UHGV virus genome: UHGV-0081093
Origin: a virus
Length of the DNA: 38,153 nucleotides
Strand: one strand, 5' to 3'
Within the stretch, counting starts at the first letter, position 1, and each line of letters opens with the position of its first letter. The position numbers and the translations under genes are program-made. The notes under the pieces were generated by a model, which did not search any database, had not been told where the DNA came from, and saw only the letters and a list, made by a program, of their open reading frames with translations. Below are positions 2,492 through 27,959 of this stretch, piece by piece.

Positions 2492-3148
2492 CTATTTAAC
2501 ATACTTGACTGTTAAACTTATAATTTTACCAATTATTTCAATGTCTTCTATCTTGCATTCGAAGGCTCTGTTTCCACCCTCGACGAAGATTCTTCCACCG
2601 GGTAAACGAGTAATGTCACGGATCGTTATTTCGCCATCAATACTTATTACCCATTTACCATCACGTATATCATCAAATTCTTTATCACAAATAAATTCAG
2701 AATTGTTATCTGTGATGACAAAAGGTTTTTTAAACGTAGAGGGTAGAAATCCCTTATCAAAAATATAAAAACCGTCTTTCTGCAATGCTCCATCAGACAA
2801 TAAATATTTTTCTACTTCTATAGTATTTGTATTTGCTGATGCTTGCTTTGAACCATGCCCTGTTGTTAGCCAATTAAGCGAGGTGCCCGTTTCAAGGGCG
2901 CACTGGATTACCCAATCTGCTGGAAAAATATCACGCATATAGCGCGTTGCCATGGTGCTCTTAGAAACACCTAAATGATCACAGAGAGCCTGACGGGTAC
3001 CGAACCCATATGCTTCAACTAAACGTTCTATGGCTTTCTTACCGCCGCTATTGAAATCCACAAGTCCTCCAAAGAAATCCGAAATTCGTTGACAGATTCC
3101 AAAAGCGATCTTAAAGTTGAACCAGAAGTGTTCTTTTGGAGCCTTCAC
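2492..3148 (-). CDS. Immunity repressor, 186 CI-like (HTH N-domain plus C-terminal domain)
   Basis: Divergent from the apl/cII-like genes and adjacent to int. Internal HTH-like segment LGVSKSTMATRYMRD...ALETGTSLNWLTTG. No obvious S24 autocleavage motif. True start may be the internal GTG near 3085 (GGAGGA RBS just upstream), which would give about 197 aa. Confidence 0.7.
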   Translation of the reverse strand: MKAPKEHFWFNFKIAFGICQRISDFFGGLVDFNSGGKKAIERLVEAYGFGTRQALCDHLGVSKSTMATRYMRDIFPADWVIQCALETGTSLNWLTTGHGSKQASANTNTIEVEKYLLSDGALQKDGFYIFDKGFLPSTFKKPFVITDNNSEFICDKEFDDIRDGKWVISIDGEITIRDITRLPGGRIFVEGGNRAFECKIEDIEIIGKIISLTVKYVK

Positions 3149-3991: not shown

Positions 3992-4288
3992 ATGCTGACG
4001 AAAGAACCATCATTTGCATCGCTGCTGGTAAAACAAAGCCCGGCAATGCACTACGGTCACGGCTGGATCATGGGTGAGGATGGTAAACGCTGGCATCCAT
4101 GTCATTCACAAGATGAATTGCTGTCTGAATTGACCACGAGGAAACGGAGAAAGTCAAAATGTATGCAGCGGAAAGTGAAGTGGTTTATCAGTTTCGTTAC
4201 AGAGGGGAAAGTTATTCAGTACCTGAAGATGATTTGCTCTGTTGTTATCCGTCGTTGTCGGGCGATGGCAGTTACTTTTTCACGCTAA
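3992..4288 (+). CDS. Hypothetical early protein (possibly Fil-like)
   Basis: ATG 3992 with GAGGTG RBS. The C-terminal third overlaps the 4159..4383 ORF in another frame, so the real extent is uncertain. Confidence 0.3.
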   Translation: MLTKEPSFASLLVKQSPAMHYGHGWIMGEDGKRWHPCHSQDELLSELTTRKRRKSKCMQRKVKWFISFVTEGKVIQYLKMICSVVIRRCRAMAVTFSR

Positions 4289-4383
4289 GGGATGGGACGT
4301 TTTTACGGGGAGAGCAGGTTAAAGAAACGATACGAAAAAATGTATCTCCTCTTGAACGTTACCGTAAGAACAAAGAACGATAG
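4159..4383 (+). CDS. Hypothetical early protein
   Basis: 74-aa ORF with a strong RBS (GAGGAAACGGAG) upstream of the ATG. Confidence 0.4.
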   Translation: MYAAESEVVYQFRYRGESYSVPEDDLLCCYPSLSGDGSYFFTLRDGTFLRGEQVKETIRKNVSPLERYRKNKER

Positions 4384-4405
4384 TTGCGTTTTGGGGATAT
4401 GAATT

Positions 4406-4747
4406 ATGGCAATTAATGGCGCTGCGGCGACTGTTCCATTAAGCCCCGGTGAACGCCTGAATGGACTTAATCACATTGCGGAGTTAAGGGCGAAAGTATT
4501 TGGCCTGAATATTGAGTCAGAGCTTGAGCGGTTTATTAAAGATATGCGTGATCCACGGGATATCAATAACGAACAAAATAAACGAGCACTGGCTGCCATA
4601 TTCTTTATGGCAAAAATTCCAGCTGAACGTCATAGCATCAGCATTAATGAGCTGACCACTGACGAAAAGCGGGAGTTGATTAAAGCAATGAATCATTTTC
4701 GTGCAGTGGTGAGCTTATTTCCCAGACGGCTAACCATGCCGAATTAA
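4406..4747 (+). CDS. Hypothetical early protein
   Basis: 113-aa ORF co-oriented in the early operon. Confidence 0.5.
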   Translation: MAINGAAATVPLSPGERLNGLNHIAELRAKVFGLNIESELERFIKDMRDPRDINNEQNKRALAAIFFMAKIPAERHSISINELTTDEKRELIKAMNHFRAVVSLFPRRLTMPN

Positions 4748-4814
4748 CCAATAAATAAAATTCATGGCGTAAACCCGCCGGGCATCCCTTTATCTAAATT
4801 CAGGAGAATTGATT

Positions 4815-5048
4815 ATGCGTAATATTGAAACCCTCACGACTAAAACCGGACCGGATGATGCAGGTCTTAATCTTTTACTGACAGAGGCCCGACTTGAAGA
4901 ACGTCGGGCAAGGGCTGAGGCAATGGCTGCCCGCCTTGATAGCCTGGCGTGTCATATCACATCCCGCCAGCTAAACCACGTCGAAGCAGCAGAACTGCTG
5001 CGTGTGACCGCTGAAGCAATCCAGAACGAAGCGCAGGAGATCCACTAA
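4815..5048 (+). CDS. Hypothetical early protein
   Basis: ATG 4815 preceded by an AGGAGA RBS; its stop overlaps the next start (TAATG). Confidence 0.5.
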   Translation: MRNIETLTTKTGPDDAGLNLLLTEARLEERRARAEAMAARLDSLACHITSRQLNHVEAAELLRVTAEAIQNEAQEIH

Positions 5049-5275
5049 TGGCTGATGCAATGGATCTCGTACAGCAGCGCGTTGAAGAAGAACGCCAGCG
5101 CCATATCCGTGCTGCCCGTGCCAAAACACCGGGCGTGTCTCGCGTGCTTTGCATTGAATGTGAAGCACCAATTCCGCCAGCACGCCGCCGTGCCATTCCT
5201 GGAGTGCAGCTTTGCATTACCTGTCAGGAAATCGCAGAGCTGAAAGGCAAACATTACAACGGAGGTGCTGTATGA
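5048..5275 (+). CDS. TraR/DksA-family C4 zinc-finger protein
   Basis: CIECEAPIP...LCITCQ four-cysteine motif in a 75-aa protein, typical of phage TraR-like proteins. Confidence 0.7.
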   Translation: MADAMDLVQQRVEEERQRHIRAARAKTPGVSRVLCIECEAPIPPARRRAIPGVQLCITCQEIAELKGKHYNGGAV

Positions 5276-6129
5276 GCACCATCCTGAAATGGGCGGGAAA
5301 TAAAACCGCAATTATGTCCGAACTGAAAAAATACCTACCTGCTGGCCCGCGACTGGTTGAACCTTTCGCGGGTTCCTGTGCTGTGATGATGGAGACGGAT
5401 TACCCCAGCTATCTGGTTGCGGATATTAATCCTGATTTAATCAACCTCTATAAAAAGATTGCCGCTGATTGCGAGGCGTTTATATCGCGGACCAGAACTT
5501 TGTTTGAGGAAGCAAACAGTGACCTAGCTTATTACAACATAAGGCAGGAGTTTAATTACTCAACTGAAATTACTGATTTCATGAAAGCGATATATTTCCT
5601 GTATCTCAATCGTCATGGTTACCGTGGGTTATGTCGCTATAACAAGAGCGGGCATTTCAACATTCCCTACGGTAATTATAAAAATCCGTATTTCCCTGAA
5701 AAAGAAATTCGCGCATTTGCAGAAAAAGCCCAGCGGGCAACGTTTATCTGCGCCAGCTTTGATGAAACGCTGGCGATGTTGAAGGCGGGGGATGTGGTGT
5801 ATTGCGATCCGCCGTATGACGGCACGTTTTCCGGTTATCACACTGACGGCTTCACTGAAGATGACCAGTATCACCTGGCATCCGTTCTTGAATATCGATC
5901 ATCAGAAGGTCATCCGGTCATTGTTTCTAACAGTGACACATCCCTGATCCGTTCGCTGTATCGCAATTTCACTCACCACTACATCAAGGCAAAACGCAGC
6001 ATCGGCGTGTCAGCTGGCGAGAGTAAATCTGCAACAGAAATCATTGCTGTTTCCGGGTCGCGCTGCTGGATGGGATTTGATCCTTCGCGTGGCGTGGATA
6101 GTTCTGCTGTGTACGAGGTGCGTGTATGA
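5272..6129 (+). CDS. dam: DNA adenine methyltransferase (Dam-like, N6-A MTase)
   Basis: N-terminal SAM-binding region (KWAGNK...EPFAGSCAV) and catalytic DPPY motif. ATG 5272 with GGAGGTG RBS; the track ORF from 5212 is an upstream extension. Confidence 0.85.
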
Positions 6130-8540
6130 GTCATGACGATATGAGCAACTCTAGCGGCTTTAACGAGGCTGCCGCAGCATTTTCATGGAACGGCCCGAAA
6201 AAGGCCATTAACCCTTATCTGGATCCGGCGGAAGTTGCGCCGGAGTCTGCACTTTCAAACCTGATCACTCTGTACGCTGCCGATAACGAGCAGGAACAAC
6301 TGCGCCGCGAGGCACTGAGTGAGCAGGTCTGGGAGCGTTATTTCTTTAATGAATCCCGTGATCCTGTCCAGCGCGAAATGGAGCAGGATAAGCTCATTAG
6401 CCGGGCAAAGCTGGCGCATGAGCAGCAGCGTTTTAACCCGGACATGGTCATTCTGGCAGATGTCAGCGCCCAGCCTTCTCATATCAGCAAGCCGCTGATG
6501 CAACGTATCGAATACTTCAGCAGCCTGGGCAGGCCAAAGGCTTATTCCCGCTATTTGCGTGAGACGATTAAGCCATGTCTGGAGCGACTGGATTGTGTAC
6601 GTGACAGTCAGCTATCTGTTTCTTTCCGTTTTATGGCAAGCCATCAAGGGCTGGAGGGGCTGCTGATCCTGCCTGAAATGAGCCAGGATCAGGTGAAACG
6701 CCTGTCCACCCTGGTAGCAGCGCATATGAGCATGTGTCTTGAGGCCGCTTGTGGTGATTTGTACGCCACCGATGACGTTAAGCCAGAAGAAATCCGCAAG
6801 ACATGGGAAAAGGTGGCTGCGGAAACCCTGCGTCTGGATGTTATCCCGCCTGCGTTTGAGAAACTTCGTCGGAAAAGAAACCGCCGCAAACCTGTGCCCT
6901 ATGAACTCATACCGGGTTCGCTGGCACGTATGCTTTGCGCCGACTGGTGGTATCGAAAATTGTGGAAGATGCGTTGCGAATGGCGGGAAGAGCAGTTGCG
7001 TGCTGTCTGTCTGGTCAGCAAAAAAGCATCTCCCTATGTCAGCTATGAAGCAGTGACGCATAAACGTGAGCAGCGCCGCAAGTCGCTGGAGTTTTTCCGT
7101 TCTCATGAACTGGTGAACGAAGACGGAGACACGCTGGATATGGAAGATGTGGTAAACGCCAGCAGCAGCAACCCGGCACATCGCCGCAATGAGATGATGG
7201 CCTGCGTTAAAGGTCTGGAGCTTATCGCGGAAATGCGCGGTGACTGCGCCGTTTTCTACACCATCACCTGTCCGTCACGTTTCCATTCCACGCTCAATAA
7301 CGGCAGACCAAACCCGACCTGGACAAATGCGACGGTAAGACAAAGCAGTGATTATCTGGTCGGCATGTTTGCTGCATTTCGTAAGGCGATGCACAAAGCC
7401 GGATTGCGGTGGTATGGCGTGCGGGTGGCTGAGCCGCATCATGACGGTACTGTGCACTGGCATCTCATGTGCTTCATGCGTAAAAAAGACCGCCGCGCCA
7501 TCACTGCATTACTGCGTAAGTTTGCCATCCGTGAAGACCGCGAGGAACTGGGCAATAACACGGGGCCACGCTTTAAGTCTGAGCTGATTAACCCGCGCAA
7601 AGGAACGCCGACAAGCTACATCGCGAAATACATCAGTAAGAACATTGACGGGCGTGGTCTGGCTGGCGAGATCAGCAAGGAAACGGGTAAATCCCTGCGT
7701 GATAACGCTGAATACGTTAATGCCTGGGCGTCTCTGCATCGTGTTCAGCAATTCCGCTTCTTTGGCATTCCGGGGCGTCAGGCTTACCGTGAACTGCGAT
7801 TGCTGGCTGGTCAGGCGGCAAGGCAGCAGGGTGACAAAAAAGCAGGTGCGCCGGTACTGGATGATCCGCGTCTTGATGCCATTCTGGCTGCTGCTGATGC
7901 TGGCTGTTTTGCCACCTACATTATGAAGCAGGGCGGCGTGTTGGTTCCCCGCAAATATCACTTGATCAGAACCGCTTATGAAATCAACGAAGAGCCGACC
8001 GCCTATGGTGATCACGGTATTCGTATTTATGGCATCTGGTCACCCATTGCAGAGGGCAAGATCTGCACTCATGCAGTGAAGTGGAAAATGGTTCGTAAGG
8101 CCGTTGACGTTCAGGAGGCGGCAGCCGACCAGGGCGCTTGCGCCCCTTGGACTCGTGGCAATAACTGTCCCCTTGCTGAAAATTTGTACCAACAAGGGAA
8201 AGACAAATCAGCTGATGGGGATACCAGAACGGATATCACCCGCATGGATGACAAGGAATTGCACGATTACCTGCACAGTATGAACAAAAAAGAGCGTCGG
8301 GAACTGGCTGCAAGGTTACGCCTGGTGAAACCGAAACGGCGTAGAGACTACAAACAGCGAATTACAGATCATCAGCGACAGCAGCTCGTCTATGAACTGA
8401 AGTCCAGAGGATTTGATGGCAGCGAGAAAGAGGTCGATTTACTCCTTCGCGGCGGCAGCATTCCGTCAGGAGCAGGCCTGCGTATTTTCTATCGGAACCA
8501 GCGTTTGCAGGAAGATGATAAGTGGCGGAACCTGTATTAA
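6126..8540 (+). CDS. A: Replication initiation endonuclease (P2 gpA / 186 RepA family, rolling-circle)
   Basis: 804 aa, in the position of P2 gene A; contains a VHWHLMCF HxH-type motif typical of rolling-circle initiators. Confidence 0.85.
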
Positions 8541-8632
8541 TTACGCGGGTTAACAATTCGTGCTCTTAATAATACCAGGTATATCAGGCTGATGAACGTA
8601 AAAAAACGTTTTACATCAGTAAGATTATTATA

Positions 8633-8652
8633 TACTGTAAATATAAACAGTG
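8633..8652. promoter_or_regulatory. LexA (SOS) box TACTGTAAATATAAACAGTG
   Basis: Matches the CTGT-N8-ACAG consensus with an AT-rich spacer; sits 40 bp upstream of the 8694 ORF and the DinI-like gene. Confidence 0.6.
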
Positions 8653-8693
8653 GTTATGCATACAGTATTGCTTGTGGTGTCATAGGAGGAAAG

Positions 8694-8882
8694 ATGCAGG
8701 ACTATTTTTTGGAGTCTTTGAAGCTCCAGCGCATTGATTTTTTTCTTAAGCTTGTAGCGGCTAGTGAGTGTAGTGATGAAGAGAAGGGGCTGGCCCTGCA
8801 GTGGGTTTCTGAACTGACAGATGAACTCATGGCAAAAATCAGAACCCACGAATACAACCGCTCAATGGATGTCATCAGCTGA
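8694..8882 (+). CDS. Hypothetical small protein, first gene of putative SOS-controlled operon
   Basis: ATG 8694 preceded by an AGGAGG RBS and lying downstream of the LexA box. The longer track ORF from 8592 would contain the LexA box. Confidence 0.45.
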   Translation: MQDYFLESLKLQRIDFFLKLVAASECSDEEKGLALQWVSELTDELMAKIRTHEYNRSMDVIS

Positions 8883-8892
8883 GGTGACTTTT

Positions 8893-9126
8893 ATGCGCAT
8901 TGAAATAATGATCGATAAAGAGCAGAAGATTAGCCAGTCTACCCTGGACGCCCTTGAATCCGAGCTTTACCGCAATCTGCGCCCCCTGTATCCCAAAACG
9001 GTAATTCGCATTCGCAAAGGTAGCTCTAACGGTGTGGAACTGACCGGACTGCAACTGGACGAAGAAAGGAAGCAAGTGATGAAAATTATGCAGAAGGTGT
9101 GGGAAGACGACAGCTGGCTGCATTAA
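8893..9126 (+). CDS. DinI-like protein (possible Tum-type antirepressor)
   Basis: MRIEIMIDKEQ...LYRNLRPLYPKTVIRIRKGSSNGVELTGLQLDEERKQVMKIMQKVWEDDSWL resembles DinI (MRIEVTIAK..., ...ETWESADDW). GAGGTG RBS before ATG 8893. Confidence 0.65.
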   Translation: MRIEIMIDKEQKISQSTLDALESELYRNLRPLYPKTVIRIRKGSSNGVELTGLQLDEERKQVMKIMQKVWEDDSWLH

Positions 9127-9327: not shown

Positions 9328-9413
9328 TACGATTTTTGCCGGAGATGGCATGTTCTATATTGATCTCATCCATATAATGATTGGTATTATTAGCTTAGTT
9401 TAAAGAGGATTGA

Positions 9414-10991
9414 ATGGATATCAACTATGTTGTTTCAAAAATGGAGTTCGTAGATGATCTTATTAATGCAGGTTCATTTGATTCTGCCTATAAAAATGTA
9501 AAGGATATTCTTAACGGTATCGATGAGATAAATACAATCAAAGAAAATAGAATAATTATATTATCTAATTTGGCCGGAAATCTTATTGATATCGGAAGTT
9601 TTAGTAATGTAAAAAATATAGCGGAGGAAGGCTTAAATATCTTTATAAACAATAAAAATGAATTTCTGACTATAATGAAAGAATCCTTATATTACTATAA
9701 CTTGGCAAATGGAATGAGCGCAGTTCTTGATTTTAATCCTAATGACAATGCAGATATTGATAGTTTCATTAAGCTGAATGATGTAAAAAATAATTACTGG
9801 AAAGCGTTTAAACTTTCACAAGAAGATGGATGGGTGCCCCCTGATTTAATAGTTAATCTAGCTAATGTATTAAAAAAACAATATCGTATATCTGAATCAA
9901 TGGATTATTATGAACAAGCAATATCTATTGATAACTCAATTCCTCAGGCATGGGTAAACAGATCTGAGGCATTAGAATTGCTTAATGAATTATCTACAAC
10001 ATATACATATAAAATGATTAAAGAAGTTATTCGAGGTTATGAGTGTGCAATAAAGTCAGGGAAATGTTTTCCTTCATGGAAGGTTGCTCTTCAAAGAAAA
10101 ATAAAGTACAACGAAAGTATATTGAGTGAATCATGTGTATATGGCATAGAGGATATAAGTACAGATGAAAGGCTCACGCAGGAGGAGTATGATACTTTAT
10201 CAAACTACCAGAGGTTTTGTATAGATAATAATCTAATGTTGTCTGATCATTCGCTATATTGCAATTGTTATGCGTCATCTAAAGATAATATAACTATTGC
10301 TACCACCGAGGAAGGTGTGTTTGGTGATTTTATAGTGCCAATGGAAATGGTGTTAAATAGACTTAAAGCTGAGTATTCCTTAGCACGAAAAATGTTTTTT
10401 GAATATAAGGTTGATAGTGAGTTTTTTGATGAGGATTCGGAGGTATGTTATTCTGAATTGTATAATGGAGAAATATTGTATGAAAATGTTGAGAAGTTAA
10501 GGGTTGCATTTAGAGCTTGCTTTGGTATCTTGGATAAAATAGCAGTTGCTCTGTGTCAATTATTTGATTTAAAACCAGATAGAGGACATATATACTTTCA
10601 TAACTTCTGGCGGATTAGTGATGAAAAAAGAAAGCTTAAAATAAACAAAATAAATAATAAAGGATTGCTGGGTTTGTTTAGTATTGCTATGGATTTGAAT
10701 GATAAAAATGGTGAGCTTGCTTTTTTTAAAGAATGGAGGAATGATTTAGAACATAAACTGTTAGTTATTCACGAGAAAGACATGTTAGTTGATTTATATA
10801 ATTCTTATGGGTTTTTTGATGAGGTGAGGTTTGTTGAGAAAGAAAAGTTTGAGAAACAGCTCTTACAACTCATGAAAATTGTGAGATCAGCCGTTATTCT
10901 TTTTGTGTTTACCATACGTATAGAGGGGAAAAAAAGTATTCCTAAAGATATGTTGACCATTAAAAATACCATCGAGAGAAAAGTATTGTAG
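9414..10991 (+). CDS. AT-rich cargo protein with TPR-like repeats and a C-terminal HEPN-like RNDLEH motif; candidate abortive-infection / defence effector
   Basis: 525-aa ORF in a block of very low GC with N/K/I-rich codon usage, unlike the rest of the prophage; AGAGGA RBS. TPR-like segments (e.g. YYEQAISIDNSIPQAWVNRSEALELL) and RNDLEH (Rx4H) near residue 445. Located between gene A and the cos-like site. Confidence 0.7.
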   Translation: MDINYVVSKMEFVDDLINAGSFDSAYKNVKDILNGIDEINTIKENRIIILSNLAGNLIDIGSFSNVKNIAEEGLNIFINNKNEFLTIMKESLYYYNLANGMSAVLDFNPNDNADIDSFIKLNDVKNNYWKAFKLSQEDGWVPPDLIVNLANVLKKQYRISESMDYYEQAISIDNSIPQAWVNRSEALELLNELSTTYTYKMIKEVIRGYECAIKSGKCFPSWKVALQRKIKYNESILSESCVYGIEDISTDERLTQEEYDTLSNYQRFCIDNNLMLSDHSLYCNCYASSKDNITIATTEEGVFGDFIVPMEMVLNRLKAEYSLARKMFFEYKVDSEFFDEDSEVCYSELYNGEILYENVEKLRVAFRACFGILDKIAVALCQLFDLKPDRGHIYFHNFWRISDEKRKLKINKINNKGLLGLFSIAMDLNDKNGELAFFKEWRNDLEHKLLVIHEKDMLVDLYNSYGFFDEVRFVEKEKFEKQLLQLMKIVRSAVILFVFTIRIEGKKSIPKDMLTIKNTIERKVL

Positions 10992-11313
10992 TATATTTTC
11001 ATCGAGCGATGAAACGGTCTGTTTTTCTTTATAGTTTTGTCATAAAAAAGAGATTTCCTGCTTAAAATTTGGCTATTACAGAGCAACTATGTATGTTCCT
11101 CGCTCACAGTAGAGCTTCATCTTTGTAAGTCTGTATGTTTCGTTTTTCAAGTGGTCATTCAGATACGGACTTTCACTTCTCTTAGACAGTGCATGACTAT
11201 GCTGCATGAAATCGCATGATCGTTTAAGGATCGTTTTTGCTAAGGCTCGCCAGAACTAGCGGGCTTTTACGTAGAACATGCAGGTGCATGAAAACCACTA
11301 CATAAAGCGGGCA

Positions 11314-11332
11314 GGCGTGGCGGGGATACGAG
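11314..11332. other. Putative cos site core (GGCGTGGCGGGGATACGAG)
   Basis: First 13 nt match the cohesive-end sequence of P2/186 as I remember it (GGCG[A/T]GGCGGGGAAAGCA[C/T]). Lies in a 474-bp non-coding gap upstream of the Q-P packaging genes. Confidence 0.4.
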
Positions 11333-11465
11333 CGCGCGCTGTGAGCTTAAAAAGCTAAATTCTAGTTTGCTATGATTCTCAAAAATTGCGTGTTAAGCAA
11401 AATAGCTACGGTTATACTGTGTACAGAAAGAACTATCAAAATTAACAATAAAGGGAGGGGATGAG

Positions 11466-12485
11466 ATGACTGCAACTACACATCAGAAGCCTCTTAATGC
11501 TTTCTTTCGCCGAGTAGGGGCGCTTGATAGGCGTTTAGCCGAAGGGCTATCAAAGTTACTTCCTGATTGGTGGGATGATTCGCTTAATCATTCAGCGAGC
11601 ATTAGCCAGCAGGTAATTTTAGGTTTGGCAAAGTTTGCGAATCTGGATTTGGCGACGGTCGTCAATCCTACTGCTGAATTGAGATTCAATGAGTCAGTAA
11701 GAAAGTATAAACACGCGGCAAATAAATCGGTCGAAGAGTTGCAGGCTGCTACGGCTGTGGTTGATGGTATGGCAAAAATCGCAGCTTCAGTTGCTAAAAG
11801 ACCATATATGGGGCTTTCATCTGCTCGTGATATACGTGAGATAATCCTTTCTCAAGGAAAGCCTTGGGTAGATTTCCTGTCACTCTTAGAATTTGCTTGG
11901 TCTGCGGGTATCCCTGTTTTGTATATGACGGATATTCCTGCCAGGAAAAAGATGGATGCAGTTGCTATAAAGGTTTCTGATCGCCCAGTTATTGCTCTTA
12001 CAAAAAAACATAAACATGCAAGTGGTATTTTGTTTAGTTTGGCGCACGAGTTAGGGCATATCGCTTGCGGCCATCTTGAGGATAACTCATTGTTAATTGA
12101 TGAAAAAATCAATGAAGATGATGTCGAAAATCCTCAAGAAATAGAAGCCAATGCTTACGCAATAGAACTCCTTAATGGCAGACCAGATGCTGCATTCCAT
12201 AGCAATGGTTGGATTTCTGCTGAAGTGCTGGCTTCGGAAGCTTTGCGTATAGGGCGTCACAATAAGGTTGATCCTGGCCACGTAGCTTTAAATTACGCCA
12301 AAACAATGGGGCGTACGCATACAGGGAATTTTTTCCCTGTATGCGGAAGTGCATTAAACATACTTTATCCTCGTTTGGATTGGATGGAGCATGCTGCCGC
12401 AATTTTTCTTGAATATGTTGATGAAGAGAAGGTATCGGAAGACAAGTTTGAAATGTTATGCAGAATGAACAACATTGAGGTGTAA
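11466..12485 (+). CDS. Metallopeptidase-domain protein (HEXXH; ImmA/IrrE / M78-like), gene 1 of cargo operon
   Basis: 339 aa with AGGGAGGGG RBS. Contains LAHELGHIACGHLED, i.e. an HEXXH zinc-peptidase motif in a context typical of ImmA/IrrE-type domains. Confidence 0.7.
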   Translation: MTATTHQKPLNAFFRRVGALDRRLAEGLSKLLPDWWDDSLNHSASISQQVILGLAKFANLDLATVVNPTAELRFNESVRKYKHAANKSVEELQAATAVVDGMAKIAASVAKRPYMGLSSARDIREIILSQGKPWVDFLSLLEFAWSAGIPVLYMTDIPARKKMDAVAIKVSDRPVIALTKKHKHASGILFSLAHELGHIACGHLEDNSLLIDEKINEDDVENPQEIEANAYAIELLNGRPDAAFHSNGWISAEVLASEALRIGRHNKVDPGHVALNYAKTMGRTHTGNFFPVCGSALNILYPRLDWMEHAAAIFLEYVDEEKVSEDKFEMLCRMNNIEV

Positions 12486-12490
12486 CGCCA

Positions 12491-13129
12491 GTGGCTGTAT
12501 TACTTGATAATGATGTAGTACTGAAATTGGCTCAACTTGATCTGCTTGCTGATGGTTGCAAATTACTTACAAGTAAGTACGGCCAACTTTATGTTTTAGA
12601 TACGCTTTTTTATCAGTTACGAGGTAAGTCAGCTCTTCGTCGTTATGGTGCTGAGGCATTGGAACGCGTACAGCAATGCCTGTCAGAGAGGGCATTTTTG
12701 CCGTTTGAAGAGTTAATCACGGATCAACGTTTGATTGAATTACAGAACAATTTCGAGAATCTTGATGAAGGCGAGATGCGTTTGCTTCAAGGTTTAATAA
12801 ATAATCATGATCTGCTTCTATCAGGCGATAAACGCTTTTTGAAGGCAATTGCTGAGACTGGATTTATAGAGGAAGCATCTCTCAATAATCGTTTTGTATG
12901 TTTAGAACAAGTGGTTTGTTTTCTTATCAATGAGTTATCTCTTGATCATGTCAACGCAAAAGCCTCGATTGCTTTTCAGGGTGAATGTAGAGTTGATAGT
13001 GCTTTAAGAACATGTATTGGTTACGGGCGTACGCATGAGCACGTTATGGAAGGGATATTTCACCAACTTCGTGGGCTACCTGAAACTCTTCTATCAATAG
13101 AGGTGCATTGGAGTTTGACTCAACCTTAA
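12491..13129 (+). CDS. Hypothetical protein, gene 2 of cargo operon (possible PIN-like nuclease domain)
   Basis: GTG start 5 nt after the gene-1 stop. N-terminus VAVLLDNDVVLKLAQLDLL resembles the first strand/Asp of PIN domains, with further acidic positions (NLDEGE, SGDKRF) at spacings compatible with a PIN fold. Inference only. Confidence 0.6.
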   Translation: MAVLLDNDVVLKLAQLDLLADGCKLLTSKYGQLYVLDTLFYQLRGKSALRRYGAEALERVQQCLSERAFLPFEELITDQRLIELQNNFENLDEGEMRLLQGLINNHDLLLSGDKRFLKAIAETGFIEEASLNNRFVCLEQVVCFLINELSLDHVNAKASIAFQGECRVDSALRTCIGYGRTHEHVMEGIFHQLRGLPETLLSIEVHWSLTQP

Positions 13130-13184: not shown

Positions 13185-14222
13185 TTAATCTGCACCTAAG
13201 GTATAAATCTCAAAGCTGATCACTTCCTCTCCCAGCCAGTCATTTAGCTCTTCTAGGCGCTTCTGCAGCGGCATCAGCTCGTTGCGAACAAAGACTCGGC
13301 TGGCTTTCTCCACATCCCCAAACCCCCCGACATTATTCGGCATAATCCCCATCATCTGCGGCGGCACTCGGTGTGCTGCCATCATGTCGTCCCGGCTCAC
13401 GTTCTTGATATTCAGAAACTCATCCTTCGCCGCAACTTCTGACAAAGGGATGATCTGAAGGCCGTCCTTTTTGCCGTTAGGCGAGTACATAAACAGGTTG
13501 CGGAAGTTGCCTGGACCTTTGGCGCTTTTCATCGCGTTGCGGAGGTTGTTCACATCCTCCTGATTCTGCGCGGCGTCGGTCATGTACATGATGAAGCCTG
13601 CATGGCTGCCGTTGATGTAATACTTACGGCGGAACAGCGTGGCGGACTCGTTGAGTAGGGCGGATGGAATGGCAGAAAGATAGCCGGGCAGGCCGTAGAT
13701 CTCCTGGTTGATGTCCGGTTCCATCAGATGAAAAATGCTGCCTTTCGTGAACTGATACGGCTGGGTTGTCATACCGTATTGCACAAACCAGTAGGTATCC
13801 AGGTCTAATCCGCGTCGGGTGTATTTTGCCAGAGTAGGCTCAAGGGCTATAACTTCACCGAATCGGTTCGTGCGTTTCTCTAGGTAGGCGTTACCAAATA
13901 CCAGATAGTCTTGCACAAAACGCGAAAAAGCCTGCTGGCTGAGCAGCGGATGAGGGATATAGGTACTGGTCAGAATGTTGCACTTTACTGCAATCGGGGA
14001 ACTGTGATGCACGGCGGCGCGGAAGGTGCGCGCCAGTCCGTCAAAGCTGACGGGCGGCTCATACCAACGGTCCATCTGTACGCATTCCACATAGTCCAGT
14101 AATTCTCGGCGGTCCAGAACAGGAACGGGATCGCCGAAGCTGAATGCTTCGGCTGAAGTCTGGCTTTTATGCTGGATGTGATTCATCGCCGCAGCGCGGT
14201 TTTTCTTACTCTTTCCCATCAA
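13185..14222 (-). CDS. Q: Portal protein (P2 gpQ-like)
   Basis: 345 aa, first gene after the cos-like site, overlapping the terminase gene by ATGA, as in P2. Confidence 0.8.
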   Translation of the reverse strand: MMGKSKKNRAAAMNHIQHKSQTSAEAFSFGDPVPVLDRRELLDYVECVQMDRWYEPPVSFDGLARTFRAAVHHSSPIAVKCNILTSTYIPHPLLSQQAFSRFVQDYLVFGNAYLEKRTNRFGEVIALEPTLAKYTRRGLDLDTYWFVQYGMTTQPYQFTKGSIFHLMEPDINQEIYGLPGYLSAIPSALLNESATLFRRKYYINGSHAGFIMYMTDAAQNQEDVNNLRNAMKSAKGPGNFRNLFMYSPNGKKDGLQIIPLSEVAAKDEFLNIKNVSRDDMMAAHRVPPQMMGIMPNNVGGFGDVEKASRVFVRNELMPLQKRLEELNDWLGEEVISFEIYTLGAD

Positions 14223-25826: not shown

Positions 25827-26270
25827 ATGAATCAATATATTTATTCCCCTTCGGAAAATGCATTTTATGCTGTTAATTTAAAAAATACTTATGAAGTAAA
25901 TGGAACATGGCCCGCTGACGCATTAGATATTCCTGATGACATTTCTGTAAAATATATGGCGGAACCGCCACAAGGGAAAATCCGAGTTGCAGGGGAAAAT
26001 GGTTTTCCCACATGGGCTGAAATACCTCCACCATCACATGAGGAACTTATTGAACAGGCCGAATCAGAGAGGCAATTATTGATTAACCATGCCAACGAAT
26101 ACATGAACAGTAGGCAATGGTCTGGTAAAGCAGCTATTGGTCGCCTGAAGGGGGACGAGCTGGCGCAATATAATTTGTGGCTGGATTATCTGGACGCACT
26201 GGAACTGGTCGATACTTCCGGGGCGCCAGATATTGAATGGCCTACGCCTCCGGCAGTTCAGGCCAGATGA
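25827..26270 (+). CDS. G: Tail fibre assembly protein (gpG/Tfa-like), current orientation
   Basis: 147 aa; C-terminal ...DYLDALELVDTSGAPDIEWPTPP Tfa signature. Confidence 0.75.
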   Translation: MNQYIYSPSENAFYAVNLKNTYEVNGTWPADALDIPDDISVKYMAEPPQGKIRVAGENGFPTWAEIPPPSHEELIEQAESERQLLINHANEYMNSRQWSGKAAIGRLKGDELAQYNLWLDYLDALELVDTSGAPDIEWPTPPAVQAR

Positions 26271-26844
26271 CATCCGGCGCTGTGCTGGTATTTGTTGCCG
26301 TCACCGCGTCAATGTAATCCAGCACAGCGTTAAGCCGGGTTGTTTCTGCCTGCATCAACTTCCGTCCGGCCTGTAATTTCAGCTGAATCAGACTGATGGA
26401 AGCCATTGCAGCATCAATCAGTGACTGACGCTGTGCTTCTGCCGCGTCTACTGCGGCGCTATGCTGTGCCTCAGTATCGGTCACCCATTTCTCACCATCC
26501 CATTTATCGTATGGCGTTAATGGGGCGATAGTGGTTGTATTTTCGGGGTAATCACCCGGTGCTGTGATTTCTTTGGCATCTCCCGTTTCGGTGTTATAGA
26601 CGATTTCACCGCGATGGTCTGGCACATATTCCCATGAATTAAAATCTACAGAACGGCAAATTGTATAACCAGCCTTATATGTACCAGGAGCGTCTAAACA
26701 GGAATATGCTGGAATACCGACACCCACTGCAAGATATTCAGTTGATGCAGAAATATATTCCCGAGTTTCACCATCGTAGTTATAAACGGTAATATTCCCC
26801 GCCTTCGTGGCAATAAACTCGCTATTTAATACTGCGTTATCCAT
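26242..26844 (-). CDS. Alternative tail fibre assembly protein (G'), inverted
   Basis: 200 aa on the opposite strand; C-terminal ...DYIDAVTATNTSTAPDVIWPELP Tfa signature. Confidence 0.7.
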   Translation of the reverse strand: MDNAVLNSEFIATKAGNITVYNYDGETREYISASTEYLAVGVGIPAYSCLDAPGTYKAGYTICRSVDFNSWEYVPDHRGEIVYNTETGDAKEITAPGDYPENTTTIAPLTPYDKWDGEKWVTDTEAQHSAAVDAAEAQRQSLIDAAMASISLIQLKLQAGRKLMQAETTRLNAVLDYIDAVTATNTSTAPDVIWPELPEA

Positions 26845-27365
26845 TATGCAGCCCTCACGATAAAGTTAAATGCAATATTTCGTGGACGGGTCTCACTCCC
26901 ACCAGTATTACCGATACTCCCTCGTGAATGAAGTGTCGGTGATGGGATCAGACTCCCTCCTGTATTTGTGGCATCAAGTCCCCGTCCTTGTGTGTATGTT
27001 TTTTTGAAAATCGTAGCCAGTTCCCATTCATCTTTTGTGTCGTAACCATCATTGGCAACAACAATATGGCGGTGTTTTTCCAGCATCCCAGCCTGAAGGC
27101 TCAATAAAGCACGTCCAGCATCAATACCACGCCCGTCATCCCAGCCACGAATAAACTCACCACGTAAATCTGGCAATTTATTTGTCGGGTAAGCCTTTGC
27201 CAGTTCCGGGTATTCTTCAGCAGAAAAAGCTGCTCCGTTGCATTTCAGCCAGCCTGTTGGCGGAGTGGCTGAAGGCCACGGAACAGGGACACCAACAGGT
27301 AATGCAGAGCCTTCTCCCAAACCAACGTTTAAGAAAATGCAGCGATTACGACTAACTGGCATCAT
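26844..27365 (-). CDS. Alternative tail fibre variable C-terminal segment (H'), inverted and currently unfused
   Basis: Opposite-strand ORF whose 5' end contains the ...NVGLGEG... crossover junction homologous to H ...YLGLGEA...; inversion would fuse it to the constant part of H. Confidence 0.6.
   Translation of the reverse strand: MMPVSRNRCIFLNVGLGEGSALPVGVPVPWPSATPPTGWLKCNGAAFSAEEYPELAKAYPTNKLPDLRGEFIRGWDDGRGIDAGRALLSLQAGMLEKHRHIVVANDGYDTKDEWELATIFKKTYTQGRGLDATNTGGSLIPSPTLHSRGSIGNTGGSETRPRNIAFNFIVRAA
27312..27337. other. Invertase crossover site (right), 26 bp TTCTCCCAAACCAACGTTTAAGAAAA
   Basis: Inverted copy of the core of the 25464..25489 site, just upstream of the invertase gene. Confidence 0.55.
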
Positions 27366-27392
27366 CCCCGGTTTTTATTCAGGGGATTGATC

Positions 27393-27959
27393 ATGCTTAT
27401 TGGCTATGTACGCGTGTCAACAAATGACCAGAACACCGATTTGCAACGTAATGCACTGAACTGCGCGGGATGTGAGCGGATTTTTGAGGACAAAATCAGT
27501 GGCACTAAGTCCGACAGACCGGGGCTTAAAAAACTGCTCAGGACACTATCGGCAGGTGACACACTGGTTGTCTGGAAGCTGGACAGGTTGGGGCGCAGTA
27601 TGCGGCATCTTGTTACGCTGATAGAAGAGTTGCGCCAGCGCGGCGTGAATTTCCGAAGCCTGACTGACAGTATTGATACCAGTACCCCAATGGGCCGTTT
27701 CTTTTTTCATGTCATGGGTGCCCTGGCTGAAATGGAACGCGAACTGATAGTTGAACGTACCAGGGCAGGGCTGGCTGCAGCTCGTGCTAAAGGCAGAGTA
27801 GGTGGACGCCGTCCTAAGTTGACTACCGAACAGTGGGCACAGATTGGGCGTTTACTCGAGGCCGGAGAATCAAGACAGCGTATTGCACTGATTTTTGATG
27901 TAGGCGTTTCTACCATTTATAGAAAATTTCCGGCAAATAAGAGCAATGAATCTCCCTGA
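27393..27959 (+). CDS. Serine site-specific DNA invertase (Gin/Pin/Hin family)
   Basis: MLIGYVRVSTNDQNTDLQRNAL...VVWKLDRLGRSM...GRFFFHVMGALAEMERELI... is near-identical in its motifs to Mu Gin as I recall it; catalytic Ser in YVRVST. ATG 27393 with AGGGGA RBS. Confidence 0.9.
   Translation: MLIGYVRVSTNDQNTDLQRNALNCAGCERIFEDKISGTKSDRPGLKKLLRTLSAGDTLVVWKLDRLGRSMRHLVTLIEELRQRGVNFRSLTDSIDTSTPMGRFFFHVMGALAEMERELIVERTRAGLAAARAKGRVGGRRPKLTTEQWAQIGRLLEAGESRQRIALIFDVGVSTIYRKFPANKSNESP

Follow-up and report, generated by a model that had tools for sequence, protein, structure and literature searches.

Two prophage-encoded HEPN ribonucleases (RNases) offer the closest precedents for the gene described here. 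HepS of the Salmonella prophage Gifsy-1, a solo HEPN protein, forms a tetramer that is inactive until switched on by a tail-tip protein of a phage, whereupon it cuts tRNA anticodon loops (PMC13043305). The second, Tha (tail-activated HEPN), comes from S. aureus prophages; this HEPN RNase is triggered by the tail proteins of incoming phages and is controlled by ith, a small overlapping antisense gene (PMC11087260). Both proteins are thus inactive by default and respond to structural proteins of phages. The LA2681 family of the HEPN superfamily was described in 2013 as "fused to TPR" in a computational description only (Anantharaman et al., PMC3710099). In this work we analyzed the UHGV virus genome UHGV-0081093, a stretch of 38,153 nucleotides (nt; "the window" in the following) which is a P2-like prophage with host genes at both ends, and in it the gene at 9414-10991, which encodes an LA2681-family protein of 525 amino acids (aa). 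We propose that this gene probably encodes a single-protein abortive-infection or exclusion nuclease that acts against phages.

The cos-proximal interval between gpA and gpQ in which the gene lies is a known defense hotspot (Rousset et al., 2022, PMC9122126). The supplementary hotspot table of that study lists HEPN_LA2681 (WP_000354145) repeatedly, with variable partners, and LA2681 is not among the systems cloned there (Tables S2A and S2B). Its entries pFR83 ("HEPN-TPR", from P4) and pFR103 ("Putative HEPN", from P2) stand in Table S2B as "additional tested systems" and not in the validated set of Table S2A; these entries are uninformative on the LA2681 family because neither protein is similar to ours (BLASTP E 1.5 and 1.2). 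The DefensePredictor supplement gives an E. coli member of the family as a predicted novel defense gene with a log-odds of 9.1, and the integron-defense and structure-guided-discovery papers make no mention of LA2681. Since the family, the TPR fusion, the P2-hotspot location and a machine-learning defense prediction are already public, our result is a re-discovery of a catalogued candidate.

At the family level we found no difference between our protein and the LA2681 entry in Table 1 of PMC3710099: the protein is a member, with the conserved Rx4-6H motif and the TPR fusion alike. HepS is the best model for its action, as both are prophage-encoded single proteins without a partner gene and with an HEPN Rx4H site. 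HepS and its homologues, however, are shorter than 250 aa, lack a TPR domain and form a tetramer, whereas the LA2681 protein has 525 aa and a TPR region; the HepS family, homologues of STM14_3211, was defined to exclude proteins above 250 aa or with extra domains (PMC13043305), and judged by architecture the two proteins belong to different HEPN families. hepS was not found in the Gifsy-1 record NC_010392, in which no open reading frame (ORF) carries R100/H105, and STM2620 of Gifsy-1 in strain LT2 is not HepS. Tha is likewise a prophage-borne HEPN protein, and RNase activity is predicted for LA2681 as well; Tha differs in having no TPR domain, and the LA2681 locus has no conserved antisense ORF. 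A TPR repeat domain and a nuclease effector in one polypeptide are also found in Avs and NLR-like STAND NTPases, and for a TIR-STAND-TPR protein of the P4 hotspot Rousset et al. (2022) proposed infection sensing by the TPRs (PMC9122126). The LA2681 protein, in contrast, has no STAND or other NTPase domain between the presumed sensor and effector, so nucleotide-driven oligomerization cannot be the way in which it is activated, if it is. The old, tin and orf91 genes of P2 occupy the same slot and likewise represent lysogenic conversion by interchangeable exclusion genes; their proteins are unrelated to ours.

Domain architecture and conservation of the LA2681 protein

The gene and the parts of its product are as follows.

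9414..10991, + strand: coding sequence of the LA2681-family TPR-HEPN protein (ATG start, 525 aa), from the ORF list and Pfam PF18733
9414..10145, + strand: N-terminal TPR-like alpha-solenoid (residues 1-244, 12 helices)
10146..10331, + strand: conserved linker (residues 245-306)
10332..10934, + strand: C-terminal HEPN domain (residues 307-507)
10737..10754, + strand: R442-N-D-L-E-H447 (Rx4H), predicted catalytic motif closing core helix 3, from the translation and the family alignment

Residues 309-504 match PF18733 (HEPN_LA2681) at E 4e-38 and 131.3 bits (curated gathering cut-off 27 bits), covering profile positions 9-204 of 204. By definition core helix 3 of HEPN domains ends in Rx4-6H, the R being followed directly by a polar residue (N/D/H), and the fold is a four-helix up-down bundle that often has an insert between helices 2 and 3 (PMC3710099). 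The whole-protein AlphaFold2 model is confident (mean predicted local distance difference test score, pLDDT, 87; predicted template modeling score, pTM, 0.88) and all helical except for one beta-hairpin, and its C-terminal topology agrees with that definition: core helices at residues 307-334, 357-384, 436-447 and 476-507 form an up-down bundle, a helical insert (385-435) separates helices 2 and 3, and the motif, with the polar N after its R, closes core helix 3 and is followed by the beta-hairpin (449-475). The closest solved folds are the HEPN toxins of HEPN-MNT pairs (PDB 5yep, 7ae2 and 8xdj) at 8-10% identity, from which the LA2681 protein differs in its larger domain, the insert of about 50 residues, the post-motif beta-hairpin, the fused TPR region and the lack of an MNT gene. 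The predicted fold provides moderate, not decisive, evidence for HEPN. Designed bundles and rhodopsins score similarly, and a Foldseek search of the C-terminal model against the PDB returned nothing significant, with HEPN toxins recurring only at low probability. In sequence searches of the PDB, a whole-length family profile retrieved TPR proteins only and the HEPN half had no match. Weak cross-family profile matches to other HEPN families were seen with HEPN_Cthe2314 (E 0.021) and the PADLOC model of Csx1/Csm6 (E 0.02). In the N-terminal solenoid there is one canonical TPR unit, at about residues 145-185, where Pfam TPR models match below threshold only. An earlier note, made from the letters and ORFs of this stretch, had described TPR-like helical repeats and, near the C-terminus, an HEPN-type motif; the modeled solenoid together with the family-level TPR fusion, and the Pfam match together with the modeled topology, bear out both parts of that description.

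By itself, finding Rx4-6H once in a single sequence carries little weight (composition alone would give 0.54 matches, and another one, not conserved, occurs at R390), and the case for HEPN therefore rests on the homologues. A database search with the protein returned 182 relatives, many of them full-length (~525 aa) at 38-45% identity, from Pseudomonas, Vibrio, Cellvibrio, Polaromonas and others. When the C-terminal 281 residues served as the query of an exhaustive search, 840 clusters (50% identity) were obtained at E <= 1e-3 and 274 at E <= 1e-10, the latter mostly from Proteobacteria. Most of the best 150 representative matches are 500-550 aa long with the HEPN part at about residues 250-520, which makes TPR plus HEPN the standard architecture of the family. 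R442, N443, E446 and H447 are invariant in 37 diverse members. In a larger alignment of 268 sequences, counting only those with a residue at the given column, R is conserved in 258/258, N in 250/258, E in 257/258 and H in 255/258. RNDLEH becomes meaningful through this invariance, and its assignment as an HEPN RNase motif, which the earlier note had made on one sequence and proposed to check in homologues, holds up in silico.

The linker contains a second conserved site, H279-x3-C283-x-C285 plus D291 (codons 10248-10286), which lies outside the Pfam model. It is invariant in the same 37 sequences, and in the larger alignment H279 is present in 251/255, C283 in 252/255, C285 in 253/253 and D291 in 254/256. 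It may be a metal site. Two cysteines in HEPN helix 2, C369 and C381, are mostly conserved. Between close relatives the TPR part is 72% and the HEPN part 85% identical, and between distant relatives 32% and 49%; the faster change of the TPR part agrees with a recognition module attached to an effector that is conserved.

The one-gene cassette and its slot beside cos

The features that define the cassette and the slot are listed below.

6126-8540: replication gene A
8592-9126: small hypothetical gene, phrog_698 (62-aa protein in E. coli relatives), and DinI-like gene, together the conserved left edge of the slot
8821-9126: DinI-like gene (Pfam DinI, E 1.3e-22)
9333..9413, + strand: upstream leader that moves with the gene; homology to Yersinia islands begins at 9333
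10992..11119, + strand: downstream tail that moves with the gene and right end of the one-gene cassette; homology to Yersinia islands stops at 11119
11314..11332, strand not applicable: cos-equivalent 19-mer GGCGTGGCGGGGATACGAG, the right boundary of the slot, from local alignment to the circularized P2 cosR/cosL junction
13185-14222, - strand: portal gene Q

The gene differs strongly in composition from its surroundings. Its G+C content (GC) is 0.307 and that of its third codon positions (GC3) 0.270, compared with 0.530 and 0.568 for gene A and 0.526 and 0.645 for portal gene Q; the GC of the whole window is 0.506 and that of the structural region (13185-35300) 0.547. The product is rich in N, K and I (8.6, 8.6 and 9.3%). 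When the window was compared with three Yersinia islands (L010-L012), 85.5% nt identity was found only over 9333-11119, that is the gene with 81 bp upstream and 128 bp downstream, and no conserved ORF was found in the downstream tail. On these sequence comparisons the gene is a self-contained, horizontally mobile one-gene cargo cassette with its limits at 9333 and 11119. The foreign composition (GC 0.31 vs ~0.53) and the recurrence of the gene with its short flanks in non-P2 islands support the separate horizontal acquisition that had been suggested, and the description as a single-gene cargo also stands, as no conserved partner was found among the loci compared. The leader contains a perfect -10-like TATAAT (9373-9378) and a strong Shine-Dalgarno sequence AAGAGGA (9403-9409) with the ATG 4 nt further on. 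A scan for consensus promoters upstream of the gene called no full sigma-70 -35/-10 pair; the -10 hexamer points to a putative native promoter within 9333-9413.

The cassette lies after gene A and the DinI-like gene and before cos, in the interval where P2 itself carries orf91, tin and old; this agrees with the earlier note, which had placed it after gene A and before cos in the slot of tin and old. The cos 19-mer GGCGTGGCGGGGATACGAG is identical to P2 cos at 14/19 positions (5 differences) and has conserved flanks (11188-11340). It was found by alignment to the P2 cos junction; a search with the P2 19-mer at <=3 mismatches returned no match. The surrounding block of about 150 bp (11188-11340) is present in 83 P2-like phage records, mostly from Klebsiella, Yersinia and Salmonella. 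The site has the look of a cos variant of its own, which could affect compatibility with P4.

The distribution of the gene is sporadic. Among 5426 complete E. coli genomes it is present in 11, at 99.4-99.7% nt identity, and the Prokaryotic Genome Annotation Pipeline (PGAP) names these copies HEPN_LA2681. In every E. coli prophage inspected the phrog_698 gene and the DinI-like gene precede the cargo. All five such prophages are P2-like, with the gene always after DinI, and their homology to the window ends at 11339, the right edge of cos; beyond cos they carry a retron Ec67, AIPR (twice), a KAP-type P-loop NTPase and a small hypothetical gene. The gene thus lies between gpA and gpQ by cos with variable content among collinear prophages, as in the hotspots of Rousset et al. 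(2022), and five different right-hand neighbors were seen in E. coli. More distant homologues are solo genes, with no neighbor conserved across genera in the loci inspected, and they are found in mobile or defense islands: the Cellvibrio homologue on a mobilizable element with AbiEii, Fic, a HigBA-like pair and ArdA, the Vibrio homologue in a Tn7-like element adjoining a Cap4 nuclease, Pseudomonas and Pantoea homologues in variable regions bearing integrase and insertion sequences, a Yersinia homologue in a P4-like island and another homologue at the end of a Mu-like prophage. Phage databases contain little of the family: none of 50,697 deposited phage records matched the protein in tblastn, IMG/VR yielded only 6 loci, and a PHROGs scan returned no match for the protein.

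Three further observations were made at homologous loci. At the end of the Mu-like prophage (L026, 2360-6280) the homologue is 41% identical and an ORF of 767 aa without a Pfam match lies 13 bp upstream; among the contexts seen, only this one hints that an operon partner may exist. In the Yersinia-type islands (L010-L012, 9755-10315, - strand; L024, 7755-8459, - strand) a gene convergent with the LA2681 homologue encodes a protein of 186-235 aa with LRNELAH (Rx4H) and no Pfam match, which may be a second, unrecognized HEPN-like protein. The copy in E. coli ECONIH5 (L014, 4001-5577) has one base fewer than the window and its annotated coding sequence is shorter (4001-5542); the likely cause is a frameshift, which probably alters the C-terminal end past the HEPN core, and the allele may be inactivated.

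Proposed action and competing explanations

Several lines of evidence favor a single-protein anti-phage nuclease: the position in the gpA-cos-gpQ hotspot beside interchangeable known defense genes (retron Ec67, AIPR, KAP NTPase), the conserved architecture, the sensor-like faster divergence of the TPR part, the one-gene cassette, the occurrence of homologues elsewhere in mobile and defense islands, and the sporadic distribution among E. coli genomes; the DefensePredictor entry points the same way. A solo-gene defense model is credible because HepS and Tha set precedents for it. In such a model the lysogen would produce the protein from the gene's own promoter and keep it inactive. When another phage infects, it would supply a trigger, which is probably a protein recognized by the TPR solenoid; the ensuing change of conformation or oligomeric state would bring HEPN domains together in a composite active site. 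The resulting metal-independent cleavage of RNA (tRNA, rRNA or mRNA) would halt translation and phage growth. The earlier note had suggested a TPR sensor plus HEPN effector acting in abortive infection; its observation and its interpretation are both supported, and none of the outcomes that it had named as refuting was encountered, the abortive-infection function itself being inferred.

Several points weigh against this proposal. No experiment on any LA2681-family protein was found in the full-text literature, and no model of PADLOC-DB v2.0.0 matches system-specifically, the only hits being a generic TPR model (E 4e-4) and the Csx1/Csm6 model mentioned above. Several residues of the TPR part are invariant (D59, G61, Y95, N99, N148, R158 and E161), which is no less compatible with a conserved ligand, intramolecular or from the host, than with recognition of a variable phage protein. 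Furthermore, the model gives no account of how a P2-like prophage would avoid the trigger during its own induction.

It is possible, and we put it forward tentatively, that LA2681 is an unnamed autonomous anti-phage system in which the TPR region binds a phage protein and the His/Cys site of the linker (H279, C283 and C285, possibly with C369/C381) acts as a metal-dependent latch that frees the HEPN RNase. Sensor and effector would then be coupled without the NTPase of Avs/NLR-like proteins and without the partner gene of toxin-antitoxin pairs, in an architecture that is also unlike HepS and Tha.

A role as an addiction or stabilization toxin appears unlikely; in that case an HEPN RNase would be restrained by a small antitoxin, protein or RNA, that has escaped recognition, and cells losing the prophage or mobile element would die. 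The closest solved folds are HEPN toxins of HEPN-MNT pairs, homologues occur among toxin-antitoxin modules (AbiEii, Fic, HigBA-like), and, as the HEPN protein of Tha is inhibited by a small antisense gene, an antisense ORF of 93 aa at 10805-11086 in the window deserves mention. However, the unit shared with Yersinia consists of the gene and its 81/128 bp flanks with no second ORF, no neighbor is conserved across genera, and no MNT-type gene lies nearby; a co-inherited adjacent antitoxin, as in HEPN-MNT and type II pairs, was not found. The antisense ORF is cut to 69 aa in Yersinia, is missing from the corresponding place in more distant loci and has a sequence like that of an antisense artefact, and we rejected it as a Tha/Ith-like inhibitor for want of conservation. 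A toxin-antitoxin role is weakened because the cassette holds one gene and its only antisense ORF is not conserved.

We also find little reason to expect that the protein serves a conflict between elements beyond phage exclusion, whether against P4 satellites, against plasmids or as counter-defense that destroys host defense RNAs. The gene adjoins cos, the only region common to P2 and P4 (PMC9122126), and homologues have the anti-restriction gene ArdA as a neighbor and reside on conjugative or mobilizable elements. The other genes found in this P2 interval, however, are anti-phage systems, and those prophage HEPN proteins that have been validated to date act against phages as well.

It is improbable that the hotspot carries the protein as a passive passenger without a defensive role, be it one that binds or processes RNA or a scaffold devoid of catalysis. 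Some HEPN domains only bind ligands (PMC3710099), but non-catalytic HEPNs typically lose the Rx4H residues (PMC3710099), which are essentially invariant here, and the sporadic, mobile-element-bound distribution and the foreign composition are also at odds with such a role. Finally, the M78-peptidase gene (11466-12485), whose product resembles the defense components RmrA and PD-Lambda-2_B, and the 212-aa gene (12491-13129) are adjacent to the LA2681 gene on the same strand, but the comparison of genomes effectively refutes a multi-gene system made up of all three: the two modules are separated by cos, homology to all other LA2681-bearing prophages ends at 11339 with differing content beyond, and 4 complete E. 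coli genomes carry the M78 pair and lack LA2681, the two genome sets not overlapping.

If the anti-phage function is validated, a compact, widely distributed one-gene defense system (~270 clusters at 50% identity) would be added to those known, together with a simple model of a repeat-domain sensor that gates an HEPN RNase without NTPase or antitoxin. For annotation, the P2 hotspot still holds catalogued candidates outside the coverage of PADLOC and PHROGs.

Other features of the prophage

The remaining genes of the window that were assigned in this analysis are the following.

1065-2252, - strand: integrase
2492-3148, - strand: 186-type CI repressor
11466-12485, + strand: M78-peptidase gene, ImmA/IrrE, 339 aa (PADLOC RmrA, E 7.5e-11; PD-Lambda-2_B, E 1.8e-10; phrog_18577)
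12491-13129, + strand: gene of a 212-aa protein (phrog_15597)

The P2 interval from cos to Q is only ~170 bp long and has no gene, and the window holds a second cargo module there (11466-13129). This M78 pair looks like a RosmerTA- or PD-Lambda-2-like toxin-antitoxin defense variant. An invertible tail-fiber region was also observed at 26242-27959, with a Hin/Cin-type serine invertase at 27387-27959 and, on the strand opposite to the invertase, an alternative tail-collar fiber segment (26844-27365, - strand) and an assembly gene (26242-26844, - strand).
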